15,386 bases of DNA from a virus. The notes beneath the pieces were generated by a model. The model had not been told where the DNA came from. It did not search any database and was given only the letters and a program-made list of their open reading frames with translations. This document shows positions 9,377 to 10,239 of the stretch, piece by piece. Both the position numbers and the translations under genes were made by a program. The stretch is taken from UHGV virus genome UHGV-0250646, one strand, 5' to 3'. How positions within the stretch are numbered: position 1 is the first letter of the stretch; the number at the start of each line of letters is the position of its first letter.

Positions 9377-9799
9377 ATGTTTCTGAAAACAGAACAATTT
9401 GAATATAACGGTATGTCCGTCACGCTTTCCGAATTGTCTGCGCTGCAGCGGTTTGATTATATAAAGTTTGTTTCAGACGCAGAACAACAGGAGACAACGA
9501 AGCATGATGTCGTGCACATTAACCAGCGATATCTGGAAACGGCATCCCTGCTTGTGGCGATGTCGCTATGGCATACCCATTCCCTCAAAGGCACTCTGGC
9601 CTCTCCGGAGACAGAGATGCAGCAGATCCGCCGTGAAGTGATGCTGGGATGGCCTGCTGATGCACTGAATCAGGCAACGAACCGGGTGCTTTATCTTTCA
9701 GGTATGCTGGATAACCGGCACGATGCCGATCCTGAACAAACCGGGAAAGCAGAAGCGACTGAGCCGGTAACATCAAAAAAGCATTCGAAGGCGAGCTGA
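9377..9799 (+). CDS. G: Tail assembly chaperone G, 140 aa
   Basis: ATG at 9377 with GGAGG SD (9365-9369). MFLKTEQFEYNGMSVTLSELSALQR… with conserved LVAMSLWH motif; syntenic between V and T/H. Carries the slippery heptamer near its 3' end. Confidence 0.9.
   Translation: MFLKTEQFEYNGMSVTLSELSALQRFDYIKFVSDAEQQETTKHDVVHINQRYLETASLLVAMSLWHTHSLKGTLASPETEMQQIRREVMLGWPADALNQATNRVLYLSGMLDNRHDADPEQTGKAEATEPVTSKKHSKAS
9775..9781 (+). other. Programmed -1 ribosomal frameshift slippery heptamer A AAA AAG (G to G-T)
   Basis: In the G frame the codons AAA AAG (9776-9781) are preceded by A (9775), forming an X-XXY-YYZ heptamer. The -1 frame is open from 9763 (after TGA at 9760-9762) to the TGA at 10237-10239, so slippage here fuses G residues 1-135 to the T frame. 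Confidence 0.75.
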
Positions 9800-10239
9800 A
9801 CTTTGTCCTGAAACTGGCGCGAGAGATGGGGAGACCCGACTGGCGCGCCATGCTTGCCGGGATGACATCCACCGAATATGCCGACTGGCGACGTTTTTAC
9901 TGCACGCATTATTTTCAGGATACCCAACTGGACGCTCATTTTTCCGGGCTGATGTACGCCGTACTCAGCCTGTTTTTTGGCGATCCGGATATGCATCCGG
10001 CGGATTTCAGTCTGCTTGCTCCAGCGTGTGAGGAAGAGCAGACGGAGATGCCGGACGAGGAAGAAATGCTGATGCAGAAAGCGACAGGAGTTGCCGGAGG
10101 CGTCCGGTTCAGAGGGGACGGAGGGCGCGATATTTCACCTTCTGCGGATGTGGTGGATGTCAGCGAGGATGATGTTGCATTAATGATGGCTTCAGCGGGG
10201 ATTTCCGGAGGTGTGAGATATGTCCCAGCCAGCGGGTGA
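9781..10239 (+). CDS. T: T-frame portion of tail assembly chaperone gpGT, made only by -1 frameshift from G (fusion about 287 aa)
   Basis: The -1 frame after the slip site reads AFEGELNFVLKLAREMGRPDWRAMLAGMTSTEYADWRRFYCTHYF… to the stop at 10237-10239, recognised as lambda gpT-like. It overlaps the H start by 20 nt. The internal ATG at 9826 is probably not used independently. Confidence 0.85.
   Translation, partial: AFEGELNFVLKLAREMGRPDWRAMLAGMTSTEYADWRRFYCTHYFQDTQLDAHFSGLMYAVLSLFFGDPDMHPADFSLLAPACEEEQTEMPDEEEMLMQKATGVAGGVRFRGDGGRDISPSADVVDVSEDDVALMMASAGISGGVRYVPASG

Follow-up and report, generated by a model that had tools for sequence, protein, structure and literature searches.

The 15,386-nucleotide (nt) window analyzed here, the whole stretch of DNA from the virus genome UHGV-0250646, carries a lambda-like series of head and tail genes on its + strand according to its map of open reading frames (ORFs). 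Within that series, the slippery heptamer A AAA AAG at 9775-9781 (+) is very probably the place where ribosomes undergo a programmed -1 shift in a lambda-type pair of tail assembly chaperone genes. As predicted from the sequence, most ribosomes would read gene G (9377-9799, +) to its stop at 9797-9799, yielding gpG of 140 amino acids (aa). A small fraction would slip back one base on the heptamer, where two tRNA-Lys, the P-site one decoding AAA and the A-site one AAG, would both re-pair with AAA AAA; translation would then resume in the T frame (9781-10239, +; 152 aa plus TGA) and run to 10239 to give a 287-aa gpGT fusion. By analogy with phage lambda, the G part of gpG and gpGT would coat the tape-measure protein H (gene at 10220-12832, +), and the T part would recruit the major tail protein (V-like gene at 8611-9363, +). 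We infer that the shift itself occurs from the reading frames, the alignment to lambda and a survey of related loci (assignment of the site: ORF list, translations, DNA alignment and family comparison).

The reading frames confine any such shift to a short interval. Codon starts of G, read as the zero frame, fall at positions congruent to 2 mod 3, and the -1 frame translated from 9730 meets stops at 9733-9735 and 9760-9762 before remaining open until the TGA at 10237-10239. The TGA at 9760-9762 (+; the 11th codon from 9730) sets the 5′ limit for a shift yielding gpGT, and both frames are open across a G/T overlap of 37 nt (9763-9799, +). This agrees with the original prediction, in which a -1 shift within 9763-9799 was the only route into the T frame. 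Zero-frame codons 133 to 135 are TCA (9773-9775), AAA (9776-9778) and AAG (9779-9781), and A AAA AAG at 9775-9781 is phased as X XXY YYZ, the register that had been claimed for it. It is the sole in-register X XXY YYZ heptamer in G, and AAAAAAG occurs once on the + strand of the window. Under a simple chance model based on window base composition, any in-register X XXY YYZ would be expected in the 37-nt overlap with a probability of ∼0.047, and one of the three heptamers efficient in Escherichia coli with a probability of ∼0.0025. The predicted gpGT joins 9377-9781 to 9781-10239, base 9781 being read twice; its computed length (135 + 152 = 287 aa, with a mass of ∼31 kDa) is that given in the original prediction. 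The junction is predicted to read EPVTSKK followed directly by AFEGELNFVLK, the latter being the predicted -1-frame tryptic peptide, and the predicted Glu-C junction peptide of gpGT is ATEPVTSKKAFE.

A second heptamer, GGGAAAG at 9743-9749 (+), is a coincidence and a decoy. The G frame reads it as GGG AAA G, which places its start on a codon boundary and puts it out of register by frame arithmetic, and the -1-frame TGA at 9760-9762 lies downstream and blocks any fusion, bearing out the earlier view that this heptamer cannot produce gpGT. It is also unconserved (the VT1-Sakai prophage, 94% identical, has GGGAAAA), and four copies of GGGAAAG were observed in the window against 2.2 by chance. Further in-register X XXY YYZ strings were found in long + strand ORFs: TTTTTTA and TTTTTTT near the 5′ end of ORF 5775-6827 (5783-5801), GGGGGGG in the tape-measure gene (10507-10513), and AAAAAAC and GGGAAAA in ORF 378-2303 (869-875 and 1427-1433, respectively). 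None of these is an efficient E. coli heptamer.

Protein identity was fixed by Pfam and by direct alignment to lambda. Window G matches PF06894 (Phage_TAC_2; E = 2 × 10−34, 118.5 bits against a cutoff of 27) and the -1-frame product matches PF06223 (Phage_tail_T; E = 1.2 × 10−11). The overlapping G and T ORFs sit between the major tail protein and tape-measure genes, giving the order V-G-T-H. A prophage of E. coli O104:H4 FDAARGOS_349 matches the 863 nt of the G-T segment at 100% identity, and in its record the Prokaryotic Genome Annotation Pipeline (PGAP) uses the names “phage tail protein”, “phage tail assembly chaperone G”, “phage tail assembly protein T” and “phage tail tape measure protein”. 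At an identity of 99% or more, the segment occurs in 510 records of complete E. coli genomes, O157:H7, O104:H4 and O111:H8 strains among them, and in Stx1a-converting phages (Stx, Shiga toxin). A sequencing error altering the frames within 9740-9800, which the original prediction had raised against itself, is ruled out because identical copies are so widespread. The element is an E. coli Shiga-toxin-type prophage with an ordinary lambda-type tail-chaperone frameshift site.

The heptamer of the window stands where lambda shifts. In lambda (J02459), G occupies 9711-10133 and the “T” of the record starts at 10115; its slip site reads GCG GGA AAG TGT TCG ACG GTG AGC TGA, and in the DNA alignment TCA AAA AAG CAT TCG AAG GCG AGC TGA of the window shares the same columns. 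A AAA AAG thus aligns column by column with the proven G GGA AAG of lambda (lambda 10109-10115), and in both genomes the last base of the heptamer (Z) closes codon 135 of a 140-codon G, five codons before the stop. Alignment of the 3′ end of G to lambda had been proposed as a check, and it shows the heptamers to be homologous in position. Lambda and the window further share the V-G-T-H gene order, the PF06894 and PF06223 families, an AAG codon in the A site (tRNA-Lys) and a conserved -1-frame peptide past the junction (K-AFEGELNFVLKLAREMGRPDWRAMLAGM in the window, K-VFDGELSFALKLAREMGRPDWRAMLAGM in lambda). They differ in the P-site codon, which is AAA (Lys) in the window and GGA (Gly) in lambda, so that both slipping tRNAs would be tRNA-Lys in the window, whereas the P site of lambda holds tRNA-Gly and the junction dipeptide is Lys-Lys rather than Gly-Lys. 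They differ also in the length of gpGT (287 aa compared to 279 aa), and window G is only 42% identical to lambda gpG over its full length. The T-frame product is 72% identical to that of lambda, including the 15 residues that precede its first ATG (9826); between the junction and this ATG the residues are AFEGELNFVLKLARE in the window and VFDGELSFALKLARE in lambda. Amino acid diversity of gpGT is 0.10 for residues 141 to 150, upstream of the first ATG. Such conservation ahead of ATG 9826 is predicted by a fusion and not by a separate T gene. For lambda, the G-T shift at G GGA AAG is established, a balanced gpG:gpGT ratio of ∼30:1 matters for tail assembly, ∼96% of ribosomes remain in frame, and the mnm5s2U34 modification of tRNA-Lys modulates the shift (PMC5009743, PMC3296357, PMC7618472).

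To survey relatives, loci were gathered by searching with window G, with three G proteins in alignment and with a further two that are divergent, and for each locus the G stop and the -1 frame were located, giving 121 distinct loci with an intact T frame. At each, the site was read as the heptamer whose last base lies five codons ahead of the G stop. G GGA AAG was found in 78 of the 121 loci (preceding codon GCG or GTG), A AAA AAG in 42 (preceding codon TCA, GCA or GTA) and G GAA AAG in one (preceding codon GTG); a canonical X XXY YYZ heptamer therefore occupies the homologous site in 120 of 121 loci. Together with the lambda alignment, this agrees with the claim that the window carries a natural variant of a conserved tail-chaperone recoding site. 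In the codon ahead of the heptamer, the wobble base (X1) fits X2X3 at every one of the 120 canonical sites, while the residue which that codon encodes is S, A or V. Because the wobble base matches while the residue varies, the pattern suggests that slipperiness is under selection, rather than the peptide or the sequence as such. A-type and G-type heptamers are interspersed among lineages: at one A-type locus (L101), G is ∼59% identical to G-type loci and 49% identical to the A-type clade of the window, and another locus (L160) has G GGA AAG inside a local context otherwise like that of A-type loci. A AAA AAG recurs at L101 and L155-L157, separate lineages in which G identity is 49% and the codons flanking the heptamer differ. 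Sequences within the window's own clade are 88 to 100% identical.

The single noncanonical heptamer belongs to a divergent relative (IMGVR_UViG_2811995239_000006; site at 1587-1593 of locus L076), which reads GTG GAA AAG. Of the slippery features, its G GAA AAG retains just the A AAG tetramer and a P-site re-pairing that tolerates G.U, and on sequence grounds it may be an evolutionary intermediate between the G and A types. In another relative (IMGVR_UViG_2869970738_000006; 1551-1640 of locus L067), a 31-nt deletion equivalent to window positions 9772-9802 removes both A AAA AAG and the G stop, and G continues for ∼70 codons in the third frame, which is neither that of G nor that of T; this looks like a decayed prophage copy. 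Across loci, the T frame extends past the G stop in length classes of 111, 138 and 146 codons, and VT1-Sakai-type copies are 35 codons shorter than that of the window; this indicates that T varies in a modular way at its C-terminal end, beside the start of H. About a dozen contigs (L078-L090) have a G identical to that of lambda, several of them being ∼48.4 to 48.5 kb long at ∼1× coverage. These come from assemblies of unrelated taxa (Neobacillus, Oceanobacillus, Kitasatospora, Shewanella, Leeuwenhoekiella, Pseudomonas and Chromatium) and look like phage lambda DNA contamination or spike-in.

Three other explanations were weighed against a ribosomal shift. T could be an independent gene initiated at ATG 9826-9828 (+), with the heptamer as incidental Lys-Lys coding; this is how PGAP and several submitters call T, as a separate coding sequence, and ORF 9826-10239 appears in the mechanical ORF list. 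However, the -1-frame peptide matches lambda for 15 residues upstream of this ATG, back to the heptamer, and the ATG lacks a spaced Shine-Dalgarno (SD) sequence, having only a GAGAG that abuts it. A shift-prone sequence occurs at this position in all 121 intact loci, its first base fitting in every one of the 120 canonical cases, and lambda T is described solely as part of the gpGT fusion (PMC5009743). From sequence and peptide conservation, the internal ATG used in public annotation is probably not a real start, and an independent T gene is highly improbable. Lambda T reportedly lacks an initiation site of its own (Levin 1993). Alternatively, the fusion could arise by transcriptional slippage, RNA polymerase adding one A in the A6 run at 9775-9780 and thereby bringing G and T into one frame. 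A homopolymeric A run is indeed present, and poly-A tracts invite slippage during replication, transcription and translation alike (PMC3711429). The run is of six A only, however, whereas productive examples (dnaX of Thermus and other clusters) use 9 to 10 A (PMC3711429). Moreover, 78 of the 121 homologous sites are GGGAAAG, with a run of three A, where the fusion is still required, and -1 shifting by ribosomes on A AAA AAG has been measured in E. coli (PMC4066793). We therefore give slippage by the polymerase very little credence.

A third possibility is that the site is a relic in a defective prophage copy, in which gpGT is neither made nor needed and conservation reflects recent common descent. 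With the window clade 88 to 100% identical, conservation there weighs little, and the L067 relative has lost the site by its 31-nt deletion. Against this, the head and tail ORFs of the window are all intact, A AAA AAG is found in the separate lineages of L101 and L155-L157 despite 49% G identity and other flanking codons, and Stx phages with this module are recorded as inducible (e.g., ASU11 by mitomycin C induction); a relic is thus very unlikely. The programmed ribosomal shift itself has points that weigh against it. The case for gpGT from this element is made from sequence and homology; the public records examined do not annotate the join; and many lambdoid prophages of enterohemorrhagic E. 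coli (EHEC) are defective, so this copy need not be expressed. The heptamer by itself gives ∼0.3% in reporter assays (PMC4066793). No SD-like motif is present 6 to 17 nt upstream (9750-9774 reads CAGAAGCGACTGAGCCGGTAACATC, without GGAG, GAGG or AGGA), and for the first 49 nt on the downstream side the predicted fold (-5.3 kcal/mol) is weaker than that of 200 of 200 shuffles (z = +2.35), with no compact stem-loop. Folding ∼30 nt downstream had been proposed as a way to find a stimulatory structure; over 30 to 49 nt the fold is worse than that of shuffled sequence, and that search gave nothing.

How often ribosomes would shift can be gauged from measurements of all 64 heptamers in E. coli by Sharma et al. 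in 2014 (PMC4066793, Table S3). A_AAA_AAG gave -1 shifts of 0.291% with no stimulator, 4.26% with IS911 stimulators and 39.0% with the IS3 pseudoknot; corresponding values for G_GGA_AAG were 0.277%, 3.80% and 43.0% (PMC4066793, Table S3). A AAA AAG is thus probably a near-neutral replacement of G GGA AAG, and because the two are near-equivalent in efficiency they can alternate at one site, which makes the variant in the window unsurprising. The ∼4% of lambda compared to the ∼0.3% of a bare heptamer makes some context stimulation of the shift likely. Sharma et al. list no SD for the gpG cluster or for that of ECs1801, another tail assembly chaperone (PMC4066793), and a scan of 9650-9950 against Rfam gave no family match above chance.

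When 79 nt downstream were folded, the window and lambda each gave a long predicted hairpin, which begins 8 nt past the heptamer in the window (-31 kcal/mol, z = -2.4) and 7 nt past it in lambda (-36.4 kcal/mol, z = -4.1). In the window this candidate stimulator spans 9790-9858 (+), with an outer stem of 9790-9796 paired to 9852-9858, an inner stem of 9815-9821 paired to 9844-9850 and a tip at 9824-9841, and according to the fold it may provide moderate stimulation. Over 40 distinct sequences, 94.5% of cells in the hairpin are paired, with changes mostly from G-C to G-U; covariation in this set was no better than in column shuffles, with one compensatory pair coming from one sequence. Synonymous diversity is mildly lower, dipping to 0.048 only in the ten codons just past the overlap. 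About half of the members of the gpG cluster described by Sharma et al. likewise have a hairpin, set off by a 7-nt spacer, with a stability that does not exceed background (PMC4066793). The ∼70 nt past the heptamer (window 9782-9860) show ∼95% DNA identity across lineages whose G proteins are only 40 to 50% identical, which points to constraint at the RNA level, to a mosaic junction close to the 3′ end of G, or to both. Two linked proposals go further. The hairpin may raise the shift from the ∼0.3% of the heptamer to the few per cent needed; and with two tRNA-Lys (mnm5s2UUU) slipping, the gpG:gpGT ratio may depend more on host thiolation (TusA/MnmA/IscS) than that of lambda does, because lambda has tRNA-Lys in the A site only. 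Taken jointly, thiolation dependence and moderate stimulation by the hairpin are a speculative and rather doubtful combination.

Among known systems, E. coli dnaX was the comparison drawn in the original prediction, which placed the site in the same heptamer class. This stands for the heptamer, which is identical, and for its register, with two tRNA-Lys slipping in both; the likeness does not extend to the SD-like element 6 to 17 nt upstream or to a compact stem-loop close downstream, both of which the window lacks. Its frameshift product would be longer than the zero-frame product, whereas that of dnaX is shorter, and we infer a shift rate of a few per cent rather than the ∼50% of dnaX. The A AAA AAG heptamer is also the commonest in the orfA-orfB genes of IS3/IS911 transposases, where a fusion is likewise made at a tuned low ratio (PMC4066793). 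Those genes differ in having demonstrated stem-loop or pseudoknot stimulators, sometimes with an SD element, and in their unrelated proteins and biology.

A further comparison is with a second tail chaperone of EHEC lambdoid prophages, in which an A AAA AAG -1 shift also leads into a longer product. Sharma et al. report two true E. coli prophage cases, G_GGA_AAG_4 (gpG) and A_AAA_AAG_25 (ECs1801, tail assembly chaperone), and their table links the latter to GeneTack cluster #10 (PMC4066793). Antonov et al. (2013) measured shifts of 6 to 7% for two genes of a GeneTack tail-chaperone cluster (PMC3711429); this is probably the ECs1801 cluster, a correspondence that the papers do not state outright. 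In the Sakai prophage Sp9 of E. coli O157:H7 (L219:20002-20376), ECs1801 is a 124-aa member of PF06222 (Phage_TAC_1) whose A AAA AAG directly abuts a TAG stop. Membership of window G in the A_AAA_AAG_25 cluster was considered and rejected: window G matches only PF06894, and BLASTP against ECs1801 gave E = 1.2. With PF06222 and PF06894 unrelated protein families, two chaperone families of EHEC prophages have converged on A AAA AAG.

A AAA AAG as a tail-chaperone slip site is thus already known, in another chaperone family. In the literature examined, no paper was found naming it for the lambda gpG family, though the table of Xu et al. (2004) may list it. No G-T join is annotated in NZ_CP027394, AP000400, ON416862, PV340551 or LC567838, all of which call T as a free-standing coding sequence from an internal ATG; the 287-aa gpGT is therefore missing from the annotation of those records. 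The records without the join include the RefSeq PGAP annotation of an identical prophage copy. What the window shows is one heptamer in place of another at an orthologous, textbook recoding site, and this is real, common and expected. It opens no new question, and its practical value lies mainly in the annotation of gpGT. Nonetheless, the family offers a clean natural case in which two heptamers of nearly equal measured efficiency replace each other at a single orthologous position, and this alternation illustrates how selection at the G-T junction may act on slipperiness rather than on sequence.
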